64,000 nt of DNA from Desulfosudaceae bacterium (GTDB lineage Bacteria > Desulfobacterota > Desulfobacteria > Desulfobacterales > Desulfosudaceae). Under the pieces are notes generated by a model that was not told where the DNA came from, did not search any database, and saw only the letters and a program-made list of their open reading frames with translations. Within the stretch, counting starts at the first letter, position 1, and every line of letters begins with the position of its first letter. This document shows, one piece after another, positions 30,024 to 47,209 of the stretch. The DNA lies in assembly GCA_963674745.2 (NCBI GenBank), contig CAXXDV010000001.1, positions 128,001-192,000 of the forward strand, read 5' to 3'. The translations under genes were made by a program, and so were the position numbers.

Positions 30024-33000
30024 CTACCGGTAAATGCTGCCACGCAAAAAGACCGTATGATCATCGTAATCAGCGTCATTGTAATTGGAATCCAAATGGG
30101 TATAGGTGTAGGCCAGATCAAACGTCAGCCATCTTAAAAAATCAAATTTAATGGTCGGCGACAGGGCATACTCCCGGTCCCGCCGTCTTTTATCTTCCCA
30201 TAGGTCATCTTCATATTCATAGGCATATTCGTCATAGAACAATGTACCGTGTAAATTCAACCGCAGCTTGCTGGTTAACTTATAGGTCACCGACAGCCCG
30301 ACCATGTGCGTCAGCATATTGGTCGACACCTGGCCGAAATAGTCATCCCAGTGAAGGCCGATACTCATGGCTTCCTCGTACCGGCGATAGGCATTGGCCA
30401 CGATCCGGGTCCGTTCGGTCATGTCATAATCCACAATAAGTTCCGCCATAACCGTACCGGTATCGGACAATTCATCGGCATCAAAGGCCCGTTTTCCATA
30501 ACCGCCCTTGAGGTGTCCGCTCGTTTTCTCGGTAATTTCCCAGCGCACCCCGCCAAAAACCCGCTTTTCAACACAATCCCGGGGTGAACGCTTATAATCC
30601 AGGTCCGCATATTCATATTCGGCAAACAGCCAGGTCTTGTCCGTCAAATGAAAATAACCGTAAAAGGCCCAGGAATTATCGACCCGGTCATTGATATTGT
30701 TTTCCCTGTCGTCATAGCTTAACCAGTAATTGGAAAAATCCAGCCGAAACTCGAATTTTTCCGTCAGGTTGACCGTAGACACCGCGCTGAACAGGTTCGT
30801 CTTGTACTTATCTTCAATGGTATAGGCCCGGGAAGAGATGGAATCATGGGCCCGTTTGAACTGGTCGATCAGCTGCAGGGTGAATTTGTTCCGGCTGTTG
30901 TAGTGAAAATAGCTGTCCAGCCGGTGGGTGACCATGTTGTTATCACTTTCATTATGATAAAACTCCCACTGCGGGCTGTAGAGCAGATAGGCCTGGTAAC
31001 GCCGGTCGTTTTTGGGATAAAAGGGGCTGACCGTCAGGCCCCCGGGGGTGGCACTGGTGGTGGAAATCTCGACCAGCCGTTCATGACTGGCCGGCAATGC
31101 CATCCACAGGCCGGGCGTAATATAAGTGGCCCAGACACCCTTGGGGTTTTTATAAGCTTCGTACAGGTTGGATTTATAAATGAGGTTCACCCCGAGAAAA
31201 CCGTGAATTTTCTCCGGCTTCTCATACACGTCTGCGATACAGTCGTCCGGAAGGATAAAACCAGGGGCCGTTTCTTCCTGTTCATGGCAGGCTTCCCCGG
31301 CACAACCGGAAAATACGCGGATCCTGTTGGCCGTGCTCACCAGCAGCTCGGCAATATCCTTATCCGAATCCGGCCGGAGCATGGCAACGACCGTCACTTT
31401 GCGGGTTTGTGATGGCGGCAGATCACCCACTTTCCACAGCAGGGTGGTCTCCCCGGTCACCGGTTTATCTTTTTTTATTTCCAGCGCGGCTGTCTTATCA
31501 TCGTCCTTACCCTCAAAAACCAGGTTGTCCTGGAGAATATCTTCGATGATCACGTCAAAAGCCGTTGTATTGCCGCGGTTGGTGACGTAAATCTGCCATG
31601 GCATGGACTGGCCCGGCTCCAGCCGGCAGGATTCCGGTGTCACCCGTATGGCCAGGTCCGCGGATTGGCTTAATAACGGATTGGTATAAGCGGATACTTC
31701 CCGTTTGCGCACACCCGGTTTTTCACAGCCGGCGGTTGTGCTCCGGGGCGTAACCATATCCAGGGGATGAACAAAATAGGCCGTTACTTTTAATCCGGAA
31801 GGGCGCAGGCATTTTTTCATCACTTTAAACCGCAGACTGCCGCCCTTTGTCAATGACCGGGGACGGCCCGAAGCATTGTCAAACGAAAAAACAACGACAC
31901 CGGGCCGGCTGGTATGCACCCGGGGCATCCGGCCGTCAAATCCGATCGCCTTCAGCTCATCCAGATAAGCATAATTTTCAGTATCAAGAACGATCTCCAG
32001 ATCATACAGTTGTCTTTTGGTTGTTTTTTTAATATCGATAACCGCTTCCAGTATCTCGCACTCTTTAACCACTTCGGGCAGGTCCACGGACACTTCGAGC
32101 CCGAGGTTGACGTCCCCGCCGGCAACAGCGTCCCTTCTTTCTCCGGAGGGGCCTAACATGACAGCCGTTTCCGGTGCTAGAAGGCGAAGACCGCAATTGT
32201 CGGCATATACCGGCCGAAACAGAATCATTTCTTCCGGCAACGGATCGCCCGGATTGCGGTTTGCCTGGAGCTCAAAATCCAGAGACAGGGAACCGCCCGG
32301 TTCAAGGGGGTCGGAGATGACAAATGTCCCTGATCCGGCATCATAAACAAAACCCGGAGACATTTCACTGACAGTGACAAAAAAACGGGTCAGGTTGGTT
32401 TCAAGGGCAAGGCCCGACGCCCTGCCGTCACCGGTGTTGCTGATGGAAATGCTTACCGGCTGTTTGTGTCCGGAAACAAATGATTCGGGAGAGATATCGA
32501 CCGTATAACGAATTTCCGGGGTGGTGATCACGGGGGCCAGGTAATAAATTTTTTCCGACTGGCAGGAATACAACTCATCGGTAAACACATAAACGGACAG
32601 ATCTTTGCAGGAAGCGACTTCCAGGTCAAAGGTATACCAGCAGGTTGAATCAGACAGCCGCTCACCGACAACGAGTGATTTCCGGGGCATGCCGATGATC
32701 TCCGGGATATCGACATCGATTTTCTGGGCCTGTTCGTCATAGCGGCATTGGACACGATTGGTCGACAGGCTGCCCCGGTAAACAAAGCCTTCCCCCCAGG
32801 ACGCGCTGCACTGCAATAAACGCAAAATACCGGAATAGGAATTATGAATCCGGACCCGAAAGGTAATCACATCCCCCAGGTCCGCTTCCGGATAGGCCGT
32901 GGGGGATATTGCCTGACCGTTTATTTTGACCGCCTCCAGGTAGGACTCGACACTGTCCTGGACCCTGGGCGCATCGATCACGACCGGATCCGCCTCGTTA

Positions 33001-33101
33001 ACGGCGGCCGTGACGCCGGCTGAAAAAAAGATCAAACAGATTAACAACAAAGGCAAAACACGTAAAAACGATAAATTAACCCTCACATTAATCCTTGACA
33101 T
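30024..33101 (-). CDS. Secreted protein: DUF11/Ig-like repeats fused to a C-terminal outer-membrane beta-barrel (EpsL/BBP2-like)
   Basis: Signal peptide; VTNRGNTTAFDVIIED and WKVGDLPP DUF11-like motifs; last ~390 aa show alternating aromatic amphipathic strands. Confidence 0.7.
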   Translation of the reverse strand: MSRINVRVNLSFLRVLPLLLICLIFFSAGVTAAVNEADPVVIDAPRVQDSVESYLEAVKINGQAISPTAYPEADLGDVITFRVRIHNSYSGILRLLQCSASWGEGFVYRGSLSTNRVQCRYDEQAQKIDVDIPEIIGMPRKSLVVGERLSDSTCWYTFDLEVASCKDLSVYVFTDELYSCQSEKIYYLAPVITTPEIRYTVDISPESFVSGHKQPVSISISNTGDGRASGLALETNLTRFFVTVSEMSPGFVYDAGSGTFVISDPLEPGGSLSLDFELQANRNPGDPLPEEMILFRPVYADNCGLRLLAPETAVMLGPSGERRDAVAGGDVNLGLEVSVDLPEVVKECEILEAVIDIKKTTKRQLYDLEIVLDTENYAYLDELKAIGFDGRMPRVHTSRPGVVVFSFDNASGRPRSLTKGGSLRFKVMKKCLRPSGLKVTAYFVHPLDMVTPRSTTAGCEKPGVRKREVSAYTNPLLSQSADLAIRVTPESCRLEPGQSMPWQIYVTNRGNTTAFDVIIEDILQDNLVFEGKDDDKTAALEIKKDKPVTGETTLLWKVGDLPPSQTRKVTVVAMLRPDSDKDIAELLVSTANRIRVFSGCAGEACHEQEETAPGFILPDDCIADVYEKPEKIHGFLGVNLIYKSNLYEAYKNPKGVWATYITPGLWMALPASHERLVEISTTSATPGGLTVSPFYPKNDRRYQAYLLYSPQWEFYHNESDNNMVTHRLDSYFHYNSRNKFTLQLIDQFKRAHDSISSRAYTIEDKYKTNLFSAVSTVNLTEKFEFRLDFSNYWLSYDDRENNINDRVDNSWAFYGYFHLTDKTWLFAEYEYADLDYKRSPRDCVEKRVFGGVRWEITEKTSGHLKGGYGKRAFDADELSDTGTVMAELIVDYDMTERTRIVANAYRRYEEAMSIGLHWDDYFGQVSTNMLTHMVGLSVTYKLTSKLRLNLHGTLFYDEYAYEYEDDLWEDKRRRDREYALSPTIKFDFLRWLTFDLAYTYTHLDSNYNDADYDDHTVFLRGSIYR

Positions 33102-33125: not shown

Positions 33126-33806
33126 TTATGGTACCATCGGGCTGATCACCGGGCGCCTGCCCTCGCCTTCGATGGTGATCCGTGACACGCCGATCGCCAG
33201 TAAAGCCGGTTGCGGCAGGGAATGGCGGTTGAACACATGACCGAAAAAATCCAGAAACGAATGGTAAACGGCGATTACGGTTGCCGGCGGGATATTAAAC
33301 CACCGGACGACCTGCACCACCAACTCCCGTTCGGCTTCGTTTTCCGCCAGGGCCCGCAATAAATCGGCTTTGGTGCGATCATGCCTGAGCATGAAATCAC
33401 AGGTCTCATAAAGACCGCCGAGACCGGTTTCCCATTGAATCAACCAGGTCAACACCTGTTCCGGAGGCGTGCCCCGCTCGTTCAAAACCCCGAGAGCACT
33501 TTCAAAATCCAGGTCCCCCTGAAGGCAGAACAGGATGATCTTTTCCGGTTCAATACCCGCCGCCAGCAGCGCCTCGACCAGCGCCGACGGGGATACCCCG
33601 CTGTTTTTAGCGGCTTTGATAATAAGCGCAATAGGAACATTCGCGTTCAACAGCATCTTCACGGCCGCTGAAACATCGCCTTTTTCAAACGCGGATTGGG
33701 GCAGGGTTTCGCTGTAGGTTGATGCCGGCACATTAATCGCGCCCGCGAACAGCGGCAGGCCGAACACAAAGCACACGACCACACCCAAAACTGTAAATTT
33801 CTTCAT
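33126..33806 (-). CDS. Hypothetical secreted helical-repeat protein
   Basis: Signal peptide MKKFTVLG...AGA; repeated A/G-x-x-P helical units; ends ISPMVP. Confidence 0.65.
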   Translation of the reverse strand: MKKFTVLGVVVCFVFGLPLFAGAINVPASTYSETLPQSAFEKGDVSAAVKMLLNANVPIALIIKAAKNSGVSPSALVEALLAAGIEPEKIILFCLQGDLDFESALGVLNERGTPPEQVLTWLIQWETGLGGLYETCDFMLRHDRTKADLLRALAENEAERELVVQVVRWFNIPPATVIAVYHSFLDFFGHVFNRHSLPQPALLAIGVSRITIEGEGRRPVISPMVP

Positions 33807-34047: not shown

Positions 34048-35883
34048 TCAAACCCCGAACCCCGAACCCCGAACCCCCAGCCTCTTAACCTGCTTTTCAT
34101 ACAACTCCGCATAATACCCCTTATTCCGCATCAGCACTTCATGCTCCCCCTGCTCCACAATGCGCCCCTCCCGTAATACCAAAATCCGGTCGGCCAGACG
34201 AACCGTGGAAAACCGGTGACTGATCAACAGGGCACTTTTATTCTCCAGAAGTTCCCGGAACCGGGTAAACACCTCGTATTCGGCCTTGGGGTCCAGGCTG
34301 CTGGTCGGCTCATCCAGCACGATCAGCCGGGCGTCCCGCAAAAAAGCCCGGGCCAGGGCGATCATCTGCCACTGGCCGATGCTCAGTTCCACCCCGTCCT
34401 TGAATATTTTGCCCAGAATGGTCTGGTATTCTTTCGGCAGGGCCGCAATTACCCGGTGGGCCCCGGCCCGTTCGGCTGCCCCTCGAACCGTCGCCATTTC
34501 GGCTTCCGGCAGATCAATGTTGCCGAACCGGATATTGTCGGCCGCAGACAGATTGTATTTGACAAAATCCTGAAAAATAACACTGATCTCTTGCCGAAGA
34601 TCGGCAATACCGTACCTGTCCAGGGGAATACCCTCCAGGGTAATCCGGCCCTGTGGGGGGTCATAAAGCCGGCACAAAAGTTTGGCAATGGTGGTTTTGC
34701 CGGATCCGTTTTCACCGACCAGGGCCACCACTTCCCCGGGTTTGATGCAAAAAGACGTGTCTTTGAGCACCATGGCCGGGGTGTTGGGATAGCCGAACCA
34801 GACATTTTCAAAGCAAAACCCGTCGCGCTCATTCCCGGGTATCGGCAGGGGTTTGTCCGGATCTTTAACAACCGGCTCAACATCCAGAAACTGAAACAGA
34901 TAGGCCAGAAACAGGTTGCACTCGTACAGATCCGCCATCCCGGCCAGCACATTTTTCAAGGCCCCCAGCCCCCGCTGAAAGGCCTGGTAAAACATGACCA
35001 TATCACCCGGCGTAATGGCGCCGGTCACCGCCCGCCAGGCCATGACCCCGAACATGCCGAACACGGCCGCGAAACTGCCCATCTGGGCCAGTAAATCCGC
35101 AATTGCCCGCCGCCGTGAAATGGACAGCTTTTCTTTCCGTAATGACCGCCGCACCCGGTTAAAGCGATGGCTGATCTCCGTTCCAATGCCGAACAGCCGC
35201 ACTTCCTTGGCATGGACGTTGCCGGTTAAAATCCAGTTATAATAAGCGGCCATGCGCTCATCCGGGGTTTTTTGGGCCTGCCAGTTGAACATGACCCGGG
35301 AAAACTTGATCCGGACCAGGATACCCGGCACCGCCGCCAGCACCAGGATGACGGCCACGGCCCAGTGAAATGTCAACAGCAAGCCGGCCATGGCCAGCAA
35401 AGAGATACTGCTCTGCCCCAGTTGAATGAGGGTATTGACGATCTGTGTCGGCCGGAACGGCCCCTCCCGCTGGGCCCGGTGCAGGGTGTCAAAATACTGG
35501 GGGTTTTCATAAAAATCCAGATCCGCCTCAATGGATTTGGCATGCAGCACATCATACATCCGGTCCCCCACCTTGAGGCTCAAGGCCTCGCGCATCAATC
35601 CGGATATGGACTGCAAACCCGCTTGCCCCAGGGCCAGTCCCCCGGCACCGACCACCAGCATCATCACCCGCCCAAAAGCCGCCTGCGGATCCGGTGACCC
35701 CATGGCCCCAATCACCGTATCCACGATCAGCTTCATCAAATACAACGATGCCAGGGGCAAAATCCCCTGCAGGGCCATGATCACGGCCGACCCGACCACC
35801 CGGCCCGGAGCGGCCCGCCACACAAACCCCACCGCCCGGTCCAACCGCACGGCATGACGTATTTTTTGACGCAACGGTTTCAT
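34048..35883 (-). CDS. ABC exporter, fused permease/ATPase
   Basis: TM domain, GENGSGKTT, LSIGQWQ signature, LDEPTS, ISHR. Confidence 0.93.
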   Translation of the reverse strand: MKPLRQKIRHAVRLDRAVGFVWRAAPGRVVGSAVIMALQGILPLASLYLMKLIVDTVIGAMGSPDPQAAFGRVMMLVVGAGGLALGQAGLQSISGLMREALSLKVGDRMYDVLHAKSIEADLDFYENPQYFDTLHRAQREGPFRPTQIVNTLIQLGQSSISLLAMAGLLLTFHWAVAVILVLAAVPGILVRIKFSRVMFNWQAQKTPDERMAAYYNWILTGNVHAKEVRLFGIGTEISHRFNRVRRSLRKEKLSISRRRAIADLLAQMGSFAAVFGMFGVMAWRAVTGAITPGDMVMFYQAFQRGLGALKNVLAGMADLYECNLFLAYLFQFLDVEPVVKDPDKPLPIPGNERDGFCFENVWFGYPNTPAMVLKDTSFCIKPGEVVALVGENGSGKTTIAKLLCRLYDPPQGRITLEGIPLDRYGIADLRQEISVIFQDFVKYNLSAADNIRFGNIDLPEAEMATVRGAAERAGAHRVIAALPKEYQTILGKIFKDGVELSIGQWQMIALARAFLRDARLIVLDEPTSSLDPKAEYEVFTRFRELLENKSALLISHRFSTVRLADRILVLREGRIVEQGEHEVLMRNKGYYAELYEKQVKRLGVRGSGFGV

Positions 35884-35923
35884 TTTTTATTCATTAAATT
35901 TTATTCGGACGGTTATGAAGGTT

Positions 35924-36068
35924 TTAAGTGGTTATGTGGTTATGTGGTTATGTGGTTAGGTGGTTAGGTGGTTAGGTGGTTATGTGGTTATGTGGTTAGG
36001 TGGTTAAGTGATTAAGTGGTTAGGTGGTTAGGTGGTTATGTGGTTAGGTGGTTAAGTGATTAAGTGGT
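35924..36068. repeat. Imperfect 8-mer tandem array TTA(A/T/G)GTG(G/A), about 18 units
   Basis: Read directly; an inverted-orientation array lies at 36501-36593 and many shorter ones occur across the window. Confidence 0.9.
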
Positions 36069-36660
36069 CGGGTTCCTGCCTCGTCATTCCGGGCAGTGGA
36101 GCGAAGCGGAACGTGACCCGGAATCTAGAAAAGGATTTAGGTTTTAGCGTTTTAAGGTTTAACCGTCCGTCCGTACTATGTGTCTCGGGTGTAGGGGCGA
36201 CCGGCTGGTCGCCCTTCCATAATGATATTCGACAGAACTGGATTCCGGATCTTGCCCCGCCTTCGGCGGGTCTTGTCCGGAATGACGATGCCAAGGATTG
36301 CGACACACTCTCTTGACCCGGAATCCAGATCGACCATGGCAACCCCGGGCTGAACAAAAACAAAACAGAACAACACACCGACACCCCAATCCGTGTAATC
36401 CGTGTCAAAAAAAAGCGGAACACCTCGCACAGGCCACCCCCACCGCTCAAACCCCGCCACCGCCACCGCAATGCGGCCCCGCCACACCTCAAACCCTGCC
36501 CACATAACCACTTAAACACATAACCACTTAAACACATAATCACATAACCACTTAACCACTTAATCACTTAATCACTTAACCACATAACCACCTAAAACTT
36601 ATTGAAGTAAAACAGGACAAACAGGGCATGATATGCCCAGAATGGATTACGACGATACGA

Positions 36661-37248
36661 CTATACTTTTTCGACCGGCCCGATGACCAAATCCCACGGC
36701 TTTCGGCACTCAAAAGCACCCGTGTCCGGCCGGAAGCGGGCCACAACCCGTTTATTGCAGATATATTGAATATGTGTCCCTTTAGCGGAGTTGATCATGA
36801 GCCGGGTGATGCGGGGCCGCCAGAACCAACTGACGATTCCGGATGTCCTGAGTCTGTCATAAAGGGGAAAAATGATTCGAACCCCTTGCCGGCGTACTTT
36901 CCAGTAGCAATGAAGCCCCCAGCCACGGCAACGTCCAAGCCATCCGCCATGAACAATTAAAATACGGCCATTGCGTTCTTTATAACATACCCGGCCCACA
37001 AAATTACTTTCAGTCACCACCCCTTTGTCCTCGTGCGCTAAAGCATCCCCACGAGTTACCAGCCCCCCGCTGATGCGTCGCACCACCCGGTGGACGATCT
37101 CATCTTGCTCTTCCCCGCGCTGCCTGAAAAACACCACCACATCCCCGGGCCTTACCCGCGACAGCGACACAGGCTCAACCGTCAACACATCCCCCGGTTG
37201 AAAGGCGCCTTTCATGCTTAAGCCAAGATATACTCGTTGTGTATGCAT
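36661..37248 (-). CDS. S24/S26 (signal-peptidase-I-like) peptidase
   Basis: GLSM..AFQPGD (catalytic Ser), GDVVVF, IVHRVV, TRGD; start set at MHTQR just after the precursor stop. Confidence 0.8.
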   Translation of the reverse strand: MHTQRVYLGLSMKGAFQPGDVLTVEPVSLSRVRPGDVVVFFRQRGEEQDEIVHRVVRRISGGLVTRGDALAHEDKGVVTESNFVGRVCYKERNGRILIVHGGWLGRCRGWGLHCYWKVRRQGVRIIFPLYDRLRTSGIVSWFWRPRITRLMINSAKGTHIQYICNKRVVARFRPDTGAFECRKPWDLVIGPVEKV

Positions 37249-37261
37249 TCTCAGACCTGCG

Positions 37262-37528
37262 CTACCAGCCGGGCGAATCGCCCGTGTGACAACTCTCACC
37301 CGCAGTCCCACCATGCGTATAACAATTTGAAGTTGCTACATTGCCAGTTGGGCAATATGGTGTGTATGCAGGATCATTGCCCCATCCGCAGGTCAAACCA
37401 GCATTCGATCCACCTCTACATTGATCTCCTGCACTGGTTCCATCGCTACACGATTCCCCCAAGACTGAAGCGATTTTCCCCACAGCCATGCTCTTCGGTT
37501 TTTCATATTTAATTTTTTTGTTTGGCAT
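37262..37528 (-). CDS. Putative RiPP precursor, Cys/Gly-rich with a YEKP leader
   Basis: 88 aa; KYEKPK leader; six Cys in CxxGxx(A/P)-type repeats; co-oriented within the rSAM/PqqD operon. Confidence 0.8.
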   Translation of the reverse strand: MPNKKIKYEKPKSMAVGKIASVLGESCSDGTSAGDQCRGGSNAGLTCGWGNDPAYTPYCPTGNVATSNCYTHGGTAGESCHTGDSPGW

Positions 37529-37545
37529 AACGCACCCCTGTCAGG

Positions 37546-38115
37546 TTAATTGTCAGAAATTTTAATTATAGTTTCATCTAATCTTTTTTGCAACAAAGAG
37601 ACAACCGACTGCTTTTCAAGCGAGAATTGCAACTGCCATCCCGGATATTGCCTGGCCATCAAAACCGCGAACTGAAACCATCTTTGTGCCAGATCCGGGC
37701 GGGTCTTTTTTCGCTGGATATCAATCTCAAAAACCGCGTCCATAAGATATTCACAGGTTTTAATCGAAGACAGTGGCTTTAGGTCAGTATGTTGAGCTGC
37801 GAAAATACGAACAATGGCATGCAGCGGATACCACCTATCCTCTTCCTGCAATATCTCCTTATACGTACTGTCGTTTTCATATACCATAGATTTAATTTGG
37901 CGGCCGCTCATTACCCCCCAAATCCCGTTGTTCAATGATCTGGCAAACACCAGATCATCCGCGATCAAATAAAAATGGTCAGAAAGCAATGAGCTTAGCG
38001 TCGTTTTGCCGGAGCAGGAATGCCCCATCAACAAAATAGCGCCATAGGGGCCATCAACAGCCGCCGCATGCAAAAACAGACCGAATTTGCTATGAGAGAC
38101 AATTGGTTCCGGCAT
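37546..38115 (-). CDS. HPr-kinase-like P-loop protein (ScmC-like)
   Basis: LFLHAAAV, GHSCSGKTT Walker A, IADD; GAGG RBS before ATG 38115. Confidence 0.7.
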   Translation of the reverse strand: MPEPIVSHSKFGLFLHAAAVDGPYGAILLMGHSCSGKTTLSSLLSDHFYLIADDLVFARSLNNGIWGVMSGRQIKSMVYENDSTYKEILQEEDRWYPLHAIVRIFAAQHTDLKPLSSIKTCEYLMDAVFEIDIQRKKTRPDLAQRWFQFAVLMARQYPGWQLQFSLEKQSVVSLLQKRLDETIIKISDN

Positions 38116-39304
38116 GTTTAACCTCATCGCCTGGTTCATTTGGTGTGTGGCTGTTTTCGATATATGTACGACGGCGTGAATCCGGAAACAACCCGCGTGC
38201 TGCCGCTTCCTGGCACATGGGATCGGGCGATATTAATTTCCCATTTACCACATAATTCTGGGCCACACAATGCATCAGGCATCTGGAAGAGTGAATACAG
38301 TCACCGCAGATACCGGGGTATTGACCGGCAAGGCCGCTTCGCAATTCGTTCAGCAGTGGATGATGGATCCAGACATCTTTTAAATCATCCGTACCCAGAC
38401 TGCCGAAACAAAGCTCCGGAATGGTGCGCCCAATACCGCACAGCGCCATTTCTCCACTCCCCAGGATCCCCAGAACATTTAACACATTACAGGTTCCACA
38501 CGATTTCCCGACGCGGAGGATCTCGGATATGGCGAGCAGGGCCGGAGGCATCATGATGGTCAATGGGATGGAAACGCGCTGCTGAAGCTCCTGATTTATA
38601 TAATGCACCAGTTTGAGCGTCTCATCAAACACGAGGGTATCCCCTTTTTTGTGCAGCCCATCCCCCCGGCCGACACTATTGACCGGGTTGAATTTAACGG
38701 ACCCGACCCCAAGATCAACCGCTAATTGAACCAGGTCGTCTATTTCATGAAGATTGCCACGATGCGGACACATGATGATCTGCGGCCGGAACCCGGCTGC
38801 AACCAGATTTTTAACCCCCTGAACCGCCTTATCAAAAGCGCCTTCAACGCCCCGGAACCAATCGTGATAAGACGGTCTTGGGCTGTCAATGCTGACCGAT
38901 ATGTGCCACAGGCTTGTATTTTCTTTTAAATGAACTGCCAGATCTTTGTCGATCAGCGTACCATTGGTTTCCATGGTCAACGGGATTTTCTGTTCCGTAA
39001 AAAAATCGACGATTTCGACAAACTGGGGGTGTAAAACCGGCTCCCCGCCGGTCAGCTTGGCATTTGTCAATCCGAGGGGCCTGGCAGCTGCCACGGCATT
39101 CTTAAGCTGTTCCAGATCGATATATTCACCCGGTGTCGGCTTGCCATCCACATATGTCGGCGCGATCCAGCAATGTCGGCAGCGCAGGTTGCACCCATTG
39201 GTCAGGTAGAGATAAAAAGAATGTAAAGGGGGTACCCCCTCCGGAAGGTCCAATTGTTCTTGTATAGATTCGGCTTGTTCGGGCGGTTGCATATCACAGC
39301 TCAT
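38090..39304 (-). CDS. Radical SAM/SPASM peptide maturase (ScmF-like)
   Basis: CNLRCRHC, TGGEP, ETNG; SPASM Cys C...C...CxxCx5CxxxC...C. Confidence 0.9.
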   Translation of the reverse strand: MSCDMQPPEQAESIQEQLDLPEGVPPLHSFYLYLTNGCNLRCRHCWIAPTYVDGKPTPGEYIDLEQLKNAVAAARPLGLTNAKLTGGEPVLHPQFVEIVDFFTEQKIPLTMETNGTLIDKDLAVHLKENTSLWHISVSIDSPRPSYHDWFRGVEGAFDKAVQGVKNLVAAGFRPQIIMCPHRGNLHEIDDLVQLAVDLGVGSVKFNPVNSVGRGDGLHKKGDTLVFDETLKLVHYINQELQQRVSIPLTIMMPPALLAISEILRVGKSCGTCNVLNVLGILGSGEMALCGIGRTIPELCFGSLGTDDLKDVWIHHPLLNELRSGLAGQYPGICGDCIHSSRCLMHCVAQNYVVNGKLISPDPMCQEAAARGLFPDSRRRTYIENSHTPNEPGDEVKHAGTNCLS

Positions 39305-39903
39305 TCGATGACCTCTCCGATAAAACCGGCTGATTTGAGTTGTTCAATGAAGGCCTCCACATCATTCACAACCTGGTCCTCAGGCACGTCTTCACAGACA
39401 TCCAGCAGATACTCGACAATCTCCTGTTTTGTCCGTGGGTATTCCAGAGACTCCCAAATAGCCAGTCCTGTGGGATTGATGGCCTGAACCGCGTCGGTTT
39501 CCGGGTTGAACAAAATCGCGCCTTCAGGCTCTTCAACACGACAGGAGATGTCGCGATTCATGCTGTATTTTGTATTTTCCATATTTTTAAAATCCTTAAT
39601 GCCTGAAAGTCGGCCCACCTCTTTTATAACAGACTGATTATTCAAATCAATTAAAATGGCCATAACGTCCTGTGCCAACAAATCAGTGGATGTTTCATAG
39701 GTGACATTCAAGACATTAACGATATCATCTACCGTTTGTTTACCATCCAGAAGATTGAGGACATCCCGCGCAACCGCGTTGATTTTCACCAGCCGGCGTT
39801 CCTCGGGCAAAAAAATCAAGGATTCGTCACCAAAATCTTCAATGGCCACATTCTGCCGGACAACATAACGATTATTTAACTCCTGGTCATCGTATTCAAC
39901 CAT
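39301..39903 (-). CDS. Tandem PqqD/RRE-domain protein (ScmD-like)
   Basis: Two repeats of the pattern LF.P.....IN..(A/G)......L......I...L......DV; start approximate. Confidence 0.85.
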   Translation of the reverse strand: MVEYDDQELNNRYVVRQNVAIEDFGDESLIFLPEERRLVKINAVARDVLNLLDGKQTVDDIVNVLNVTYETSTDLLAQDVMAILIDLNNQSVIKEVGRLSGIKDFKNMENTKYSMNRDISCRVEEPEGAILFNPETDAVQAINPTGLAIWESLEYPRTKQEIVEYLLDVCEDVPEDQVVNDVEAFIEQLKSAGFIGEVIE

Positions 39904-39907
39904 TGTT

Positions 39908-40021
39908 GGTCTCGCAAAAATAGTCATTCCGAGCAAGTCCTGCCGAAGGCGGGCCCGCTGGATCCCGGCTCACATTTCGCTTCGCTCCATTGGCCGGGAT
40001 GACGAGTTGTGAGACAGTCTC
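39908..40021. repeat. Short MITE/REP-like palindromic insert
   Basis: GTCTCGCAA...TTGTGAGAC ends enclosing GTCATTCCG...CGGGATGAC and a CCTGCCGAAGGCGGG hairpin. Confidence 0.55.
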
Positions 40022-40061
40022 CAAGCCCGGAATTACGATGGCAACACTTTTTATAAAGCCA

Positions 40062-41504
40062 TCAGCCATGGGACAATTCATCAATAAACGGTTTATCAAA
40101 AGCCATTACCTGATTTTTGAATCGCCGATAACAGTCATGGGGATTGGCCCGGTTAATCTCCCCGGTCATTTCATGGGCCAGGCCCGGGCAACTGCCGTTA
40201 CAATACGGCGCCCATTCACAATCTTCGCAACCCGGCACCTGGGTCATGAGGATTTTTCGCCGGTCTTTGAGGGCCTGTAAGGATGAGTGATGCTTCCAGA
40301 TATCGGTTAATCGGCCCTGGTTAACCTGACCCAGCACCACTTTGGCCAGCATGTTACATGGCGTGATAACCCCGTCCGGGTGGACAGAAAGTTTGTTGTA
40401 CATACAGCCACAGGCCGTCAGATAGCCCATTTTCCATCGAGCAGTCATTTCCCCGGTGGCTTTGGCGTGCTCCATTTCCCGGTATGAATACCACTTGGCC
40501 AGGGGACCGGCCGTAGCGGTAACCCGGCCGTTGTATTGTTTTTCCAGCCGGGCCAGGGATTTCATGGCTAGTACCTGCTGCTGCGGTGTCAGTGTAATGG
40601 TTTTTTGATTATTACACCCGGAACCCATGGGCATGGCATCATTGGTTCCGAAACTGTTTATGCCCACATCCTTCAGCAGCAGCCGGGCGATATTATCAAG
40701 GTCGTCTACATTGTGGCGATTGACCGTTACCCGGACGGTTACCGGAAAACCGGTTTCTTTGAGCAGACGCAAAGCCCGGTACGCTTTCTCAAAACTCCCT
40801 TTACCACGGCTTTTGTCATGGACCTCGGCGCAGGAACCGTCAATAGACACCTGGATGCTGTTTAGCCGTTGGCGTCGGTTGTGTTTTTCAAATTCGGACA
40901 AAACCGTTTCCGTAATCAGTGTGCCGTTGCTTAGGATGCTGTAACGCATGCGGCTGTCAATAAGCGCGTCAATCAACGCCCATAAATCCGGCCGGACAAA
41001 GACCTCTCCTCCGCTCAGGGTGGCGCTCCGGACTCCGAATCGTTTTAACTCATCAAAAAAGGTCAGCCATTCCGGAAGCGGCAGGTCCGGACGAGAAGCC
41101 ATTTCATCCGCGTAAAAGCAGTAGGCGCAATGAAGGTTGCATTTTCCGGTCAGGGACAGATCAAAATCTCGAGGGGCATCGGCAATATTTGAATACGCTT
41201 CTGTCGGCATCGGTTTTTCGACCGGGGTTTCCGAGGCAACAGCAAACCCTTCGTTCAGTAATTCACCCGAAAATTCGGTGACGTCGGACAGAATTTCATC
41301 GTTGACGGAGATGTCGCAACGGGCGGCAAGGGTTTGGGCAAGGGCATCGGTGTGCGCCGTGCCGTCCATGGCCTGCCATACGATCAGGCCGGTGAGGTTG
41401 ATGACTTTTTCCCGGCCGGTGTCCGGGTCAAACAAGATGGCATTGTCCCCTTCAAGGCAGACGGAGATTTGGGGTTGGCGGGACCAGTATATTTTATTTT
41501 TCAT
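40062..41504 (-). CDS. Radical SAM/SPASM peptide maturase with an N-terminal PqqD/RRE domain (ScmE-like)
   Basis: N-terminal AILFDPDTG..INLTGLIVW; CNLHCAYC, SGGE; SPASM CGC...PC...CEDC..YCNGSC...DC. Confidence 0.9.
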   Translation of the reverse strand: MKNKIYWSRQPQISVCLEGDNAILFDPDTGREKVINLTGLIVWQAMDGTAHTDALAQTLAARCDISVNDEILSDVTEFSGELLNEGFAVASETPVEKPMPTEAYSNIADAPRDFDLSLTGKCNLHCAYCFYADEMASRPDLPLPEWLTFFDELKRFGVRSATLSGGEVFVRPDLWALIDALIDSRMRYSILSNGTLITETVLSEFEKHNRRQRLNSIQVSIDGSCAEVHDKSRGKGSFEKAYRALRLLKETGFPVTVRVTVNRHNVDDLDNIARLLLKDVGINSFGTNDAMPMGSGCNNQKTITLTPQQQVLAMKSLARLEKQYNGRVTATAGPLAKWYSYREMEHAKATGEMTARWKMGYLTACGCMYNKLSVHPDGVITPCNMLAKVVLGQVNQGRLTDIWKHHSSLQALKDRRKILMTQVPGCEDCEWAPYCNGSCPGLAHEMTGEINRANPHDCYRRFKNQVMAFDKPFIDELSHG

Positions 41505-42100
41505 TTTTATTTATTTTTAATGTATGAGTCCATTTTTATTCTGGATTCCGGGTCAAGCCCGGAATGACGAAGCGAAAGACCCGTCATTACGAAACGAAAG
41601 GCATTCGGCATGCCGCCGGCGAAAGGCCCGTCATGACCAAGCGCAAGTCCGTCGTCATTCCGCCAACGCAAGGCCTTCATTACTCGTCATTCCGGACAAG
41701 CGCAACGAAGCGGAGGCCGTCATTACTCGTCATTCCGGACAAGCGCAACGAAGCGGAGGCCGTCATTACTCGTCATTCCGGACAGCGCAGCGCAGCGGAG
41801 CGTGATCCGGAATCCAGTTCTGACGAGCATTATTATACGACTTTACGTTTATTAGCAATACAGCCGGTTGTTTCTGTCTTTCCATTCCCTTTTCTTGTAC
41901 GGCCTTGGTTTGCCATGGCCGATCTGGATTCCGGGTCAAGCCCGGAATGACGAAGCGAAAGGCCCGTCATTACCAAACGAAAGGCATTCGTCATTCCGCC
42001 AACGCAAGGCCGTCATTACTCGTCATTCCGGACAGCGCAGCGCAGCGGAGCGTGATCCGGAATCCAGTTCTGACGAGCATCTTAGCACGACTGAACATAT

Positions 42101-42406
42101 TCACCCGGACTGTTTAATCGAATCATACAAATCTTTCCAGTGCGGGTTTGTTTTTTCAATAAGTTCAATCTTCCACTGACGCTTCCAGTTTTTTAGCTGC
42201 TTTTCCCGGGTAATGGCGGATTCCATCGTGGCATGCAGTTCATACCAGACCAGTCGATGCACATGATATTGTTCGGTAAACCCTTTTATCTGATTGTTCT
42301 TGTGTTGCCATATGCGTTTGACGATATTTGATGTCACGCCGACATAAATCGTGCCATTTTGCCTGCTGGCCAGAATATACACGGCCGGTTGTTTCTGTCT
42401 TTCCAT
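42101..42406 (-). CDS. Stand-alone GIY-YIG endonuclease (copy 1)
   Basis: AVYIL...TIYVGVT, KRIWQH, AITREKQLK. Confidence 0.9.
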   Translation of the reverse strand: MERQKQPAVYILASRQNGTIYVGVTSNIVKRIWQHKNNQIKGFTEQYHVHRLVWYELHATMESAITREKQLKNWKRQWKIELIEKTNPHWKDLYDSIKQSG

Positions 42407-43007
42407 TCCCTTTTCTTGTACAGCCTTGGTCTGACTCCTGCCGATCTGGATTCCGGGTCAAGCCCGGAATGACGAAAGCGAAAGGCCCGTCATTACGAAA
42501 CGAAAGGCATTCGTCATTCCGCCAACGCAAGGCCGTCATTACTCGTCATTCCGGACAGCGCAGCGCAGCGGAGCGTGATCCGGAATCCAGTTCTGACGAG
42601 CATTATTATACGACTTTACGTTTATTAGCAATACAGCCGGTTGTTTCTGGCTTTTCATTCCCTTTTCTTGTACAGCCTTGGTCTGACTCCTGCCGATCTG
42701 GATTCCGGGTCAAGCCCGGAATGACGAAAGCGAAAGGCCCGTCATTACGAAACGAAAGGCATTCGGCATGCCGCCGGCGAAAGGCCGTCATGACCAAGCG
42801 CAAGTCCGTCGTCATTCCGCCAACGCAAGGCCGTCATTACTCGTCATTCCGGACAAGCGCAACGAAGCGGAGGCCGTCATTACTCGTCATTCCGGACAAG
42901 CGCAACGAAGCGGAAGCCGTCTTTCCTCGTCATTCCGGACAGCGCAGCGCAGCGGAGCGTGATCCGGAATCCAGTTCTGACGAGCATCTTAGCACGACTG
43001 AACATAT

Positions 43008-43313
43008 TCACCCGGACTGTTTAATCGAATCATACAAATCTTTCCAGTGCGGGTTTGTTTTTTCAATAAGTTCAATCTTCCACTGACGCTTCCAGTTTTT
43101 TAACTGCTTTTCCCGGGTAATGGCGGATTCCATCGTGGCATGCAGTTCATACCAGACCAGTCGATGCACATGATATTGTTCGGTAAACCCTTTTATCTGA
43201 TTGTTCTTGTGTTGCCATATGCGTTTGACGATATTTGATGTCACGCCGACATAAATCGTGCCATTTTGCCTGCTGGTCAGAATATACACGGCCGGTTGTT
43301 TCTGTCTTTCCAT
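43008..43313 (-). CDS. Stand-alone GIY-YIG endonuclease (copy 2)
   Basis: Protein identical to copy 1 except A13T. Confidence 0.9.
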   Translation of the reverse strand: MERQKQPAVYILTSRQNGTIYVGVTSNIVKRIWQHKNNQIKGFTEQYHVHRLVWYELHATMESAITREKQLKNWKRQWKIELIEKTNPHWKDLYDSIKQSG

Positions 43314-43611
43314 TCCCTTTTCTTGTACAGCCTTGGTCTGACTCCTGCCGATCTGGATTCCGGGTCAAGCCCGGAATGACGAAGCGAAAGGCCCGTCATT
43401 ACGAAACGAAAGGCATTCGGCATGCCGCCGGCGAAAGGCCGTCATTCCTCGTCATTCCGGACAAGCGCAGCGCAGCGGAGGCCGTCATTACTCGTCATTC
43501 CGGACAGCGCAGCGCAGCGGAGGCCGTCATTACTCGTCATTCCGGACAGCGCAGCGCAGCGGAGCGTGATCCGGAATCCAGGCCAAGCGAACCCCGGAAT
43601 GACGACACCAA

Positions 43612-44811
43612 TTAATGCCTAAATGTCTTTACCAGTTCAACCAATAACCCAAAGGGACGAAAAAGAAAATAAAACCCGGAAAACCGTGAATCCCTGGAAT
43701 GCTTTTCCCAATCTTTCTGGGTGGGGATAAAAATCCGGCGCAGAAGATAATGAAACTTGTCTCCGGGATGTTCCCGGATTTTCAAATAATAAGGAAGCTC
43801 AGCAATACGACCTTCGATCCCTTTTGTCTGATGGTTGCCATCAAATAAATCCGTATATATTCTTTGAACAATTTTTCTAATAGTTTTGTCTTTTTTAATA
43901 TTATCAACGATTTCCACCGGCAATGTGATGCCAAACACATCCCGGGCCAGAAAAAGGCCCAGCAGCAACCGTCTCCGGCAATGAAGCAATCCGGCCAGCT
44001 TGAGCGTCAATTGCCAGTCAAGCGCCGGATGTTGGCCTATCCATTCGGCAACACATAGGACCTTCTCCAGATGATTCCAGATATCATGGGCACCGTTAAG
44101 GCACAGACACAACAGCATATCTTCCGCTGACAGGCTGAGTATATCCCGGCCATCAAAACTAATTTTTTGCAGCCGTTCTTTGCAGAATTCATAATCAAAA
44201 GCCTGCCGATAAGGCACGCTGACCTGCCAGTGCAGATCGATTTGCAGCTCTTCAGCTGCATCTAAAAAATGGCACTCTCTGGCGTATTTCAGAACCTGCA
44301 CAAAACGTTTGCCGGACAGCCATTTTACAGAAGGAAACAACCGGGATTCCAGAAGCGCGTCCCGGGCCGAAACAACCTGATCTTCCGGCACCAGTACATC
44401 CACATCCTGATAATACCTGAGGGCGCTGTCACCATACAGGCATTGTGACAACAAGGGCCCTTTGTAAAGAACAGCCGGGATACCACGCTGCTCAAACCGA
44501 GCCAGGACAGCCATCAGCTTTTTGCATATCCTGAGGTTGTAGGCGACTATATTTAAATACTGACGGGAAAAGTTACTTTGCACGGCCTCCGGCAACACCG
44601 GCAGCAATCCTGCCTTCTTGATATTGGCATACAAAACCGGCAGAACACGGTGATTTTCTGCCAGCCGCAAAATCCGCTCCCAGTCAACCCCTCCGATTTC
44701 AACCAGCTCGCCTGCCCGCCTGATCCTTTCCGGCGTCAAATCCGCCCGGATCAGGACCAGAAGCAACTCAAAATCAGCCGATTGTTTCTTACTGACAAAT
44801 TCGCTATACAC
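43612..44811 (-). CDS. Nucleotidyltransferase family protein (NTP_transf_5-like)
   Basis: VDW..ILRLA..HRV, YKG, R...DVDVLV, IDLHW. Confidence 0.8.
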   Translation of the reverse strand: MYSEFVSKKQSADFELLLVLIRADLTPERIRRAGELVEIGGVDWERILRLAENHRVLPVLYANIKKAGLLPVLPEAVQSNFSRQYLNIVAYNLRICKKLMAVLARFEQRGIPAVLYKGPLLSQCLYGDSALRYYQDVDVLVPEDQVVSARDALLESRLFPSVKWLSGKRFVQVLKYARECHFLDAAEELQIDLHWQVSVPYRQAFDYEFCKERLQKISFDGRDILSLSAEDMLLCLCLNGAHDIWNHLEKVLCVAEWIGQHPALDWQLTLKLAGLLHCRRRLLLGLFLARDVFGITLPVEIVDNIKKDKTIRKIVQRIYTDLFDGNHQTKGIEGRIAELPYYLKIREHPGDKFHYLLRRIFIPTQKDWEKHSRDSRFSGFYFLFRPFGLLVELVKTFRH

Positions 44812-45123: not shown

Positions 45124-47130
45124 TCACCCGCTCCTGGCGCTCTTCACAAAAATATTATACAGCGCCCAGAATCCGTAATACAGGTCCGTCTTGACCGGAT
45201 TTTTCAAATAGGCCCGCAGATATTTTTTTTCGGAAGCACAGATTTCCTCAAAGGTTTCGGGCATATCCACATAAAAGGGCGGAATCAGACCCGGCTTGGT
45301 CTGCTGGCGCAAATTGCGCAACGCTTCGTCATACAGGCTCAAATAATGGGTGCTCAAGGGCCGGACCCCGACCACTTTCAAATCCCCCCTTAACCAGTTG
45401 TACAGCATGGGCAGCTCATCGATCCACAACTTGCGAAACACCTTGCCCCAGCTGGTGACCCGAAAATCATCCTTGATCTTCCCCCCCTCCTTCAGCCCCT
45501 GATGTTCAAATACATAATCCTGCAAGAACTCCGAATAGGGATGCATGGTCCGCAGCTTGAACACATCAATCATCTTTCCCTGGTACCCGCTCCGGCGCAG
45601 GCTCACCATGGGACCGTAAGTGGGGTTTTCATTAAACGACGGTTTTTTCGCTTTCCGGGCAATCACCCACATTCGTCTGTCTATCTCCTGTTCAGCCACA
45701 ATATCAAATCCGCAGAACGACAACCGGCCCAGCACCTCGGCCCGGGAAAGAATCCGGTTTTTGCCCCTGGTAACGACAAAATACAAAGCATTGATCCGGG
45801 GCAGTTTGGGCAGGACCCGGTTAAACAGAAAGTCCAGGCTGTACAAAACATGGGCCAGCAGCCGCGGGAACTTGCGGTAGACCCATTCATAATGGGTTTT
45901 GATGGTATGGGCATAACCGATAAAATACCCTCCGGCCAGCAGCCCCTGGTGGATATTCAAAAAATATTCATTCACCCTTCGCACGTCATTTATTTTATGC
46001 AGGTTGATAAACAACCGGGTGGGGATTTCTTCTTCCAGGTTTCGAAACAACGGATCGCTGCTTTGCTCAATGGCGGTCTCCAGGCACAGGATCTCGTTCA
46101 GCTCCGGGATGTTTTCTTCAATAAAGTCAAAAACCCCGGGCAAGGCAACGGCCAACCGCTTTTCGATTTTGTTTTTTGCCGGGGCCAGCAGTTTTTCACG
46201 GATGGCCTCGATATCCACATTCATGTCCACCGGTGCCTGGTCCAGGATCTGCTGGACCGCTTCCACGGACTCGATATCTTTTTCCGCAGCCCGTTTCTTA
46301 CGCCCCCCCAGCACGACGGACAACAGAACCCCCTCAAGCACCATCAAAAAAACAACCGTGCCAAACCCCTGGAACCGGGAAAAATGAAACAACCGAAAGG
46401 CGAATACCACCACCCCCACGCTGGCCAGCATGATCATCCCGGCCTTTTCCCATTGCCAGAACACATCATAAGCGGTTTGCGACCGGAGGATGACAAACTT
46501 TTTTGTGGCCAGGGCACAAAAAAGCCACAGCACCAGCATCACCAGCAGCAACTTGTCATAGGCCGGCAGCAACCCCCAGTGCCCCCGTTTCATGTAATTG
46601 ACCAGAAAAAACGAAATCAACACCAGGGCCAGGTCCGCGGCCACCAGCCGGTAATGGATTACGAACCGGGCAACATCCCGGGGCATGGTCTCCCCGCCAT
46701 GGTCGGCATCAGCCGTTTGATAGGCAGCAACCGGCTGCCAAATCGACCAGGCCAGCACATTCAACAAAAAAAATAACAGGCCGGTGGCAAACACCTGCAC
46801 CCGAGAATACATGGTCAGACCGAAAAACACGATCAGAAAAGTGATGACATAGGTCAAATAGCAATTGGCCTTGAAAACGACCACCAACCCGTCCCGGTAG
46901 CCATCGTACTCCCCGGGTTGAAACTTTTTGGCCACCAGAGAAGACACCAGCCAGCAGACGACAAACAAAAGCAGCAGAAGGTCATACCTTGGTGGCAGGA
47001 GCAAATCCCCCCGCTTGAAGTAATTGCCCAGAAAAAAAGCAATCACCAGCAAACCAAAATCCACCCAGAACAGCTTGCGCCCGGTCAGCACCATCCCTTT
47101 TGATTCATTTCCACCGTTCTTCAAATCCAT
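45124..47130 (-). CDS. Priming sugar (polyprenyl-phosphate glycosyl-1-phosphate) transferase with an extended N-terminus
   Basis: FKLRTM, DFRVT..G..RKLWIDELP, GD...VGVRP; multiple TM segments; GAGGGG RBS before ATG 47130. Confidence 0.85.
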   Translation of the reverse strand: MDLKNGGNESKGMVLTGRKLFWVDFGLLVIAFFLGNYFKRGDLLLPPRYDLLLLLFVVCWLVSSLVAKKFQPGEYDGYRDGLVVVFKANCYLTYVITFLIVFFGLTMYSRVQVFATGLLFFLLNVLAWSIWQPVAAYQTADADHGGETMPRDVARFVIHYRLVAADLALVLISFFLVNYMKRGHWGLLPAYDKLLLVMLVLWLFCALATKKFVILRSQTAYDVFWQWEKAGMIMLASVGVVVFAFRLFHFSRFQGFGTVVFLMVLEGVLLSVVLGGRKKRAAEKDIESVEAVQQILDQAPVDMNVDIEAIREKLLAPAKNKIEKRLAVALPGVFDFIEENIPELNEILCLETAIEQSSDPLFRNLEEEIPTRLFINLHKINDVRRVNEYFLNIHQGLLAGGYFIGYAHTIKTHYEWVYRKFPRLLAHVLYSLDFLFNRVLPKLPRINALYFVVTRGKNRILSRAEVLGRLSFCGFDIVAEQEIDRRMWVIARKAKKPSFNENPTYGPMVSLRRSGYQGKMIDVFKLRTMHPYSEFLQDYVFEHQGLKEGGKIKDDFRVTSWGKVFRKLWIDELPMLYNWLRGDLKVVGVRPLSTHYLSLYDEALRNLRQQTKPGLIPPFYVDMPETFEEICASEKKYLRAYLKNPVKTDLYYGFWALYNIFVKSARSG

Positions 47131-47209
47131 GCCCCCCCTCTGGCCCCTGAAACCCCATAACAACCTTACAGGTAACTACACTAAAACCTTCCCCCCCTGC
47201 GAACCAGTC

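Follow-up and report, generated by a model that had tools for sequence, protein, structure and literature searches.

A probable extended SynChlorMet-type cassette with an assigned Cys-repeat precursor in a Desulfosudaceae genome

The stretch of Desulfosudaceae bacterium contig CAXXDV010000001.1 analysed here (the window, 64,000 nt) carries, on its minus strand at window positions 34048-44811, what is very likely an extended SynChlorMet-type cassette for a peptide that ribosomes make and that is modified after translation (RiPP), which modifies, trims and exports a Cys-repeat peptide. The SynChlorMet cassette is described by five NCBIfam/TIGRFAMs models: ScmA (TIGR04252), ScmC (TIGR04249), ScmD (TIGR04248), ScmE (TIGR04250) and ScmF (TIGR04251). 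An earlier note on this DNA had listed eight co-oriented genes, and all eight are present as minus-strand open reading frames (ORFs) where it placed them. No gene of the set has a broken frame, and every plausible long ORF of this interval runs on the minus strand. The source genome is nearly complete (99.96%).

The proposed pathway would involve five steps: binding of the leader (residues 1-24, with a Y8-x-x-P11 motif) by three PqqD-type RiPP recognition elements (RREs), one on the ScmE-like enzyme and two in the ScmD-like protein; installation of cross-links at the cysteines of six CxxG repeats by the ScmE- and ScmF-like radical S-adenosylmethionine (SAM) enzymes; phosphorylation of a Ser/Thr by a ScmC-like kinase, followed by decoration of that site by an NTP_transf_5 enzyme; removal of the leader by a soluble S26B peptidase, which would cut after the near-invariant Gly24 (V-L-G / E-S-C); and export of the product by an ATP-binding cassette (ABC) transporter.

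The putative substrate is encoded by an 88-aa ORF with six cysteines (37262-37528), preceded by a G-rich stretch (GGGG) 7-10 nt upstream of its ATG. Residues 1-24 (37457-37528) are the predicted leader, and residues 25-88 (37265-37456), with the six CxxG repeats, the predicted core. The peptide matches no family at E≤0.01, and a word-index protein search returned a single relative (77 aa, 61% identity). The latter result is misleading, since profile searches found many. One could take that search, together with the miss by the curated ScmA model (E 0.95), to mean that the small ORF is a chance or unrelated gene and that the enzymes act on another peptide or on a small molecule. This is most improbable: the family occupies the same operon position in many phyla, counts 1655 cluster representatives, co-occurs with ScmE in a nested manner at the genome level, and has a leader with invariant Tyr8 and Pro11, of the YxxP type that RREs bind; a complex prediction with the ScmD-like protein adds weak support. 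The 88-aa ORF is a real precursor, one of a large conserved family whose members accompany ScmE/ScmF-type radical SAM genes.

Synteny among related loci is consistent with this assignment. From 201 candidate stretches around ScmE relatives, 162 were confirmed and the best 80 kept, 79 of which were analysed. An iterated profile search of small ORFs placed the peptide family in 37 of these 79 ScmE loci; homologous cassettes thus do not consistently lack a similar peptide, the pattern that the earlier note had named as speaking against its proposal. Within the architecture of the window, the peptide gene usually comes directly after the P-loop gene, and the gene order E-D-F-c-peptide-S26 recurs among related loci. 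The claim of an identifiable precursor is borne out by a peptide family that is both conserved and syntenic across homologous loci.

Forty loci are well covered, with at least 3 kb before and at least 6.5 kb after the ScmE start. The peptide lies inside the locus in 26 of these. For the remaining 14, whole-genome profile searches found it elsewhere in the genome in 13 cases (5/5 at E≤4.3e-18, 5/5 at E≤9.7e-17 and 3/4 at E≤2e-9) and did not find it in one 2.6-Mb metagenome-assembled genome. Near the Kiritimatiellia/Verrucomicrobiota cassettes, a motif filter for Cys-rich ORFs gave no credible peptide, and a reading of locus L016 likewise gave none; the whole-genome profile searches then placed the peptides of these groups away from the ScmE locus. 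Here, a triad of peptide, S26 and NTP_transf_5 genes, in that order, stands apart from the ScmE-D-F-C block in all five genomes examined. In loci L086-L090 the peptide-S26-nucleotidyltransferase group is often about 15 kb from ScmE-D-F-C on the same contig, and the precursors carry a long Ser/Pro/Glu-rich C-terminal tail beyond the Cys repeats.

At the genome level, the peptide and ScmE largely occur together. In a class sample of 121 genomes, seven have the peptide (E≤1e-5) and ten a ScmE-like gene (E≤1e-60), with all seven among the ten; no peptide was found in the 111 ScmE-negative genomes. A phylum sample of 401 genomes contains 31 with the peptide and 32 with ScmE: 25 with both, six with the peptide only and seven with ScmE only. 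These counts are descriptive and not a test, the genomes being related and many of them fragmented. Across 1.84 billion cluster representatives, a profile search recovered the 1655 proteins at E≤1e-3, of which 53 also pass E≤1e-10; the best 150 matches are mostly full-length, at 70-120 aa. Three long proteins, P0122, P0131 and P0178 (1062, 1843 and 1501 aa), each match the Cys-repeat core in 9-19 stretches and could be either precursors with several cores in tandem or Cys/Gly repeat proteins with no relation to the family. Pfam has no name for the peptide family, and the ESM Atlas returned just 'hypothetical protein' clusters without Pfam families (scores 0.91-0.92).

Among 30 aligned members, Y8, P11, C59, G62, C80 and G83 are invariant, and G24, C27, G30, C47, G50 and C69 nearly so; a 137-row alignment gave the same pattern. 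In the core, only cysteines and their +3 glycines are invariant. Of the 281 cysteines counted in 48 peptides, 81% have Gly at Cys+3 and 55% have Ala/Pro at +6. The distance from one Cys to the next was taken for 233 gaps and amounts to 10-12 residues in 195 of them, and the 48 peptides carry six cysteines (24 peptides), seven (11), five (8) or four (5). In the leader, the Y-x-x-P followed by Gly has the spacing of the RRE-binding motif of lasso leaders, and one family member matches a lasso-leader model weakly (E 0.12). The ScmA model (49 positions, cut-off 35 bits) scores the window peptide at 9.7 bits, under its cut-off, by aligning residues 8-44 with model positions 1-39, so that the match begins exactly at Y8. 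None of 23 scanned family members reaches the ScmA cut-off, the best scoring 24.6 bits. Judged from this alignment, the precursor is a distant, longer ScmA relative that automatic annotation has missed.

The predicted cleavage site lies at the boundary between leader and core. Type I signal peptidases follow a rule of small residues at -1 and -3, which the site at Gly24 fits; the residue at -3 is Val or Ile. Predicted alone from the 137-row alignment, the precursor structure has a mean predicted local distance difference test score (pLDDT) of 59.8, a predicted template-modelling score (pTM) of 0.21 and no secondary structure. This fold is unreadable and points to no cross-link partners.

The first of the two maturases is the ScmE-like protein (40062-41504, 480 aa), a radical SAM/SPASM enzyme that begins with a PqqD/RRE domain. 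It matches TIGR04250 over residues 110-463 (387.2 bits, E 6.2e-116; cut-off 400), and a six-frame genome search with the same model likewise remains under the cut-off (387.9 bits). Its Pfam domains are PqqD (23-87), Radical_SAM (117-276) and SPASM (365-429). Twenty relatives keep, without exception or almost so, the cysteines of CxxxCxxC (C122/C126/C129) and the SPASM positions C367..G378..C383, C426/C429/C435/C439 and C458. The ScmF-like protein (38090-39304, 404 aa) matches TIGR04251 at 367.4 bits (E 8.7e-110; cut-off 400) and has a Radical_SAM domain at 33-194. Its SPASM score (17.2 bits) falls below the Pfam cut-off of 21.5, yet the CX2CX5CX3C cysteines are readable in the translation. Both proteins carry CxxxCxxC and the seven-cysteine SPASM motif that together mark radical SAM/SPASM enzymes. 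The domain content that the earlier note had described is thus present for PqqD, in the ScmE- and ScmD-like proteins, and for SPASM at the level of the Pfam model in the ScmE-like protein only. The likeness to SynChlorMet that it had pointed to also stands: the ScmE, ScmF and ScmD models are the best NCBIfam matches of three of the proteins, and a fourth, the P-loop protein, matches ScmC weakly but is linked by profile comparison with a genuine ScmC.

Cys thioethers of the sacti or ranthi type are the likeliest product of these enzymes, at about even odds. The nearest solved relative of the ScmE-like protein is the sactisynthase SkfB, a thioether synthase (E 1.4e-17), and Cys-repeat substrates of SPASM enzymes typically yield thioethers. 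The restriction of invariant core residues to cysteines and their +3 glycines points the same way. It is possible, at clearly lower odds, that ScmE and/or ScmF perform other radical chemistry, such as C-C or C-O cross-linking, epimerisation or formylglycine-type Cys oxidation, with the cysteines serving for metal binding or disulfides. Consistent with this second possibility, the nearest solved relative of the ScmF-like protein is the C-C cross-linker PqqE (E 4.3e-15), followed by SkfB (E 9.5e-13), and other strong NCBIfam neighbours are heme and mycofactocin enzymes. The peptide core is also more conserved across phyla than is usual for an antibiotic-type RiPP.

Leader recognition would fall to the RRE domains. 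The ScmD-like tandem PqqD/RRE protein (39301-39936, 211 aa, TTG start) matches PF05402 in two stretches (94.1 bits) and TIGR04248 at 71.1 bits (best stretch 130-207; cut-off 100), and it aligns over its full length with 22 relatives. Its stop overlaps the start of the ScmF-like gene by 4 nt (39301/39304), which the ORF coordinates confirm as previously claimed. A complex prediction pairing this protein with peptide residues 1-40 scored 0.53 against 0.24 for the best control, with at least 88% contact agreement between runs and a partner pLDDT of at least 51. Among 157 solved complexes, 116 pass the same mark, and among 215 mismatched pairs, 2 do. The support for leader binding is weak. Passing scores of 0.60 or less belong to only 18 of the 157 solved complexes and to both mismatches. 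RRE-leader complexes have already been solved, and a passing score may mirror likeness to them only.

The P-loop protein (37546-38139, 197 aa) resembles HPr kinases. The ScmF-like gene ends within its ORF (38090), and the overlap proposed in the earlier note holds; the start at 38115 that it had given is not singled out, 38139 being possible too. Family matches are weak: HprK_rel_A (E 0.0025), HPr(Ser) kinase (E 0.0065), PEPCK_ATP (E 0.0017) and ScmC TIGR04249 (16.6 bits, E 0.0037; cut-off 125), and the curated HprK models do not reach their cut-offs. Aligned with 22 relatives, the protein retains invariant H24, GxSxxGK(S/T)T, D61-D62 and E138. Its AlphaFold2 model has a mean pLDDT of 86.6 and a pTM of 0.83, and the Foldseek matches listed from the PDB are all ATP-dependent phosphoenolpyruvate carboxykinases (PEPCK) or HprK/P, 19 of them at E≤0.001, with TM-scores of just 0.34-0.53. 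Walker A motif, acidic pair and fold together place it with the HprK/P-PEPCK proteins. By hhalign, residues 17-186 match residues 144-323 of a ScmC::S26 fusion encoded elsewhere in the genome (96.6%, E 5.7e-10), and therefore the P-loop protein corresponds to the kinase-like domain at the C-terminal end of ScmC and lacks the N-terminal remainder. It is an HprK/PEPCK-fold homologue of that domain with the nucleotide-binding residues kept.

The gene for a putative S26B (SEC11/SipW-type) serine peptidase (36661-37248, 195 aa) is present as the earlier note had stated, its start lying probably at ATG 37248 and not at 37314, the furthest that the ORF could reach. The start of the closest relative's S26 gene corresponds to 37248, which is 13 nt past the peptide stop. 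The protein matches the archaeal-type signal peptidase I model TIGR02228 at 48.6 bits (E 7.9e-13; cut-off 51.85) and no Pfam family at E≤0.01. It has the SM, VHR and GD motifs of SEC11/SipW-type S26 enzymes, which line up with the boxes that hold Ser, His and Asp in human SEC11A/C (E 0.013-0.016) and recur in relatives. The translation shows no hydrophobic anchor at its N-terminus, and we therefore take the protein to be a soluble leader peptidase. A membrane signal peptidase acting on a Sec signal was considered and rejected, there being no visible anchor and the substrate leader being of RRE type, not a signal peptide. S26 homologues come after the peptide in many related loci.

The remaining two genes flank the set. 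The NTP_transf_5 nucleotidyltransferase (43612-44811, 399 aa, GTG start) matches PF14907 at 169.4 bits (E 1.4e-49), a family to which the lasso-cluster enzyme PsmN presumably also belongs. The ABC exporter (34048-35883, 611 aa), a fused permease and ATPase, has ABC_tran (110.8 bits) and ABC_membrane (26.1 bits) domains and no C39 peptidase domain; its MsbA/HlyB-type NCBIfam matches are all under their cut-offs. Component counts across loci cover 78 loci, since L085 had no ORF best-matching ScmE, and many of these loci end at contig ends. ScmF is found in 65 of the 78 (38 of the 40 well-covered loci), PqqD in 64 (38 of 40), a ScmC-type gene in 45 (32 of 40), S26 in 32 (25 of 40), an NTP_transf_5 homologue in 24 (14 of 40) and the ABC exporter in 32 (22 of 40).

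Repeats are inserted in three spacers of the cassette: 41505-43611, 39920-40006 and 35892-36604. The first is an insertion outside the pathway, consisting of two 101-aa GIY-YIG genes (43008-43313 and 42101-42406, both on the minus strand; PF01541, E 1.4e-17 and 3.1e-17) within repeats of about 43 nt (families D2-D10), and it parts the nucleotidyltransferase gene from the rest by 2.1 kb. The two GIY-YIG genes are 99% identical, with no further copy in the genome. A 12-nt core of the ~43-nt repeat occurs 45 times in the genome, and a small copy of the repeat lies in the ScmE/ScmD spacer (39920-40006). The third, in the spacer of 0.7 kb between the S26 and ABC genes, is an element with inverted arms of about 114 nt, each of about 18 tandem 8-nt units, around a centre of about 420 nt (direct-repeat families D1 and D5, inverted pairs I1-I14); similar octamer arrays stand at five other genome sites.

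These insertions qualify the description of the cluster as complete-looking, which is otherwise upheld by the intact frames. They might also signal that the cluster, invaded by repeats and GIY-YIG genes, is decaying and no longer a single unit. We consider this improbable, as all genes are full-length relative to their relatives, the insertions are confined to spacers, and the closest relative (L034) likewise has 6.5 kb between its nucleotidyltransferase and ScmE genes.

A second cassette in the same genome bears on the role of the radical SAM enzymes. Searched against its own genome, the window peptide has a weak second copy (E 0.057). This second cassette (G000 C1:283526-285962; locus L006 7526-9962) lies outside the window. 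Its precursor, of 94 aa with six cysteines and the same leader (here YEPP), is encoded between a PqqD gene of 105 aa and an ScmC::S26 fusion of 554 aa that exceeds the TIGR04249 cut-off of 125 (144.9 bits). It is flanked by dnaX and hflKC/groESL, and no radical SAM gene stands beside it. Two loci, L006 and L076, have ScmC fused to S26, and in others the two are neighbours. One explanation would be that RRE, ScmC-like kinase and S26 form a self-sufficient core, with the radical SAM enzymes optional and the main modification ATP-dependent. This explanation is doubtful in light of the genome-level counts: a ScmE-like gene is present in 7/7 peptide-bearing genomes of the class sample and 25/31 of the phylum sample, and two of the six exceptions are matches within 515- and 1071-aa ORFs. 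Given this co-occurrence, radical SAM enzymes acting in trans would explain most cassettes that lack them, including that of this genome.

A broader form of the argument, which we regard as unlikely, is that RRE, ScmC kinase domain, S26B and peptide represent the ancestral core of an undescribed RiPP class, with lasso-like leader recognition and ATP-dependent core maturation, to which radical SAM enzymes and nucleotidyltransferase are add-ons. If so, a genome with both a full and a radical-SAM-less cassette would make two related products, and the strongly conserved six-repeat core would speak against an antibiotic and for a shared physiological role, such as that of a signal or of a metal- or redox-active peptide that is secreted.

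Several observations weigh against an extended SynChlorMet-type cassette acting by the steps proposed above. Seven of the 32 ScmE-positive genomes in the phylum sample have no peptide at E≤1e-5. Cassettes of peptide, RRE and ScmC::S26 without a radical SAM gene exist, one of them in the source genome, and therefore the Cys repeats need not serve radical SAM chemistry alone. Across the 281 cysteines, no acceptor residue is conserved beyond Gly (+3) and Ala/Pro (+6), and the type of link is for that reason unreadable from sequence. The 137-row alignment has no Ser/Thr conserved across the whole family that would mark a kinase target, and the peptide ends in Trp, whereas lasso kinases target a C-terminal Ser. 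The repeats in three spacers could disturb co-transcription. Finally, all five curated SCM models score below cut-off on the window proteins, and cross-linking, phosphorylation, nucleotidylation or glycosylation, cleavage and export are inferred only.

The surroundings of the cassette are of exopolysaccharide type (30024-33101, 33126-33806 and 45124-47163). Downstream is a gene whose 1025-aa product combines a DUF11 domain with an EpsL-like beta-barrel, beside one for a 226-aa protein without family match. A Bac_transf sugar transferase gene adjoins the nucleotidyltransferase gene, as it also does in the closest relative, L034.

Nothing in this locus would greatly surprise a specialist; its value is as a clean, complete example, with an assigned substrate, of a long-uncharacterised pathway. 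SynChlorMet-type cassettes are widespread in anaerobes, and searches found at least 1369 ScmE-like proteins at E≤1e-30. With a complete gene set, an assigned precursor, a predicted cleavage site and a second cassette in the same genome, the chemistry becomes directly testable. The pair of HprK-like kinase and NTP_transf_5 enzyme, familiar from lasso peptides, is here also linked with a radical SAM pathway.

The pathway logic proposed here resembles that of the Qhp system of quinohemoprotein amine dehydrogenase. There, QhpC, QhpD, QhpE and QhpF provide cytoplasmic radical SAM thioether cross-linking of a small peptide with cysteines, leader removal by a dedicated serine protease and ABC export. 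In contrast to the window cassette, in which the protease is of S26B type, the Qhp protease is subtilisin-like, and the Qhp product is an enzyme subunit.

The maturases of sactipeptides and ranthipeptides (SkfB, AlbA, PapB, CteB) are likewise RRE-dependent radical SAM/SPASM enzymes acting on Cys-bearing precursors. StsB, AlbA and PapB are among the NCBIfam neighbours of the window enzymes, with scores far under the cut-offs of those families. Two features set the window cassette apart from these systems: it has two maturases, and its precursor has a CxxGxx[A/P] repeat of about 10-12 residues without a conserved Asp/Asn/Thr acceptor.

Lasso clusters offer a parallel for the kinase and nucleotidyltransferase. 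According to PMC8498205, an HPr-kinase homologue of lasso clusters phosphorylates a precursor Ser, and a nucleotidyltransferase then adds hexoses to the phosphate. The lasso tailoring pair (paeninodin kinase/PsmK and PsmN), as described in PMC8498205 and PMC7533575, shares with the window an HprK-fold kinase, a nucleotidyltransferase described as uncharacterised, a PqqD-type RRE, a YxxP-type leader and an ABC exporter. According to the same papers, the lasso nucleotidyltransferase is sometimes fused to the leader protease; in the Kiritimatiellia/Verrucomicrobiota cassettes, the nucleotidyltransferase gene adjoins the S26 gene. Unlike the lasso substrates, the window peptide has no C-terminal Ser. 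A lasso cluster was itself rejected as an identification: Pfam and NCBIfam scans of the proteins of 34048-44811 found no Asn-synthetase-like cyclase and no B2 transglutaminase-type protease.

Among known systems the SynChlorMet cassette, itself a purely in silico definition, comes closest; searches of the open literature found no paper on such a cassette, its chemistry or its product. The window locus agrees with it in gene content, having two radical SAM/SPASM enzymes, a chaperone of PqqD type, a ScmC homologue that is HprK-like, and a precursor with Cys repeats that the ScmA model matches from the YxxP motif onward. In public databases, relatives at 57-80% identity already bear the name ScmE, given by their sources. 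The differences lie in architecture: the window ScmE has a fused RRE, its ScmD is a tandem PqqD protein, its ScmC is reduced to the 197-aa C-terminal domain, and its precursor has 88 aa as compared to the 49 positions of the ScmA model. In addition, the S26B peptidase, the NTP_transf_5 enzyme and the ABC exporter are regular extra members. With this altered architecture, and with all five SCM models below their cut-offs, we therefore file the locus as a variant of the SynChlorMet cassette and not as a member.

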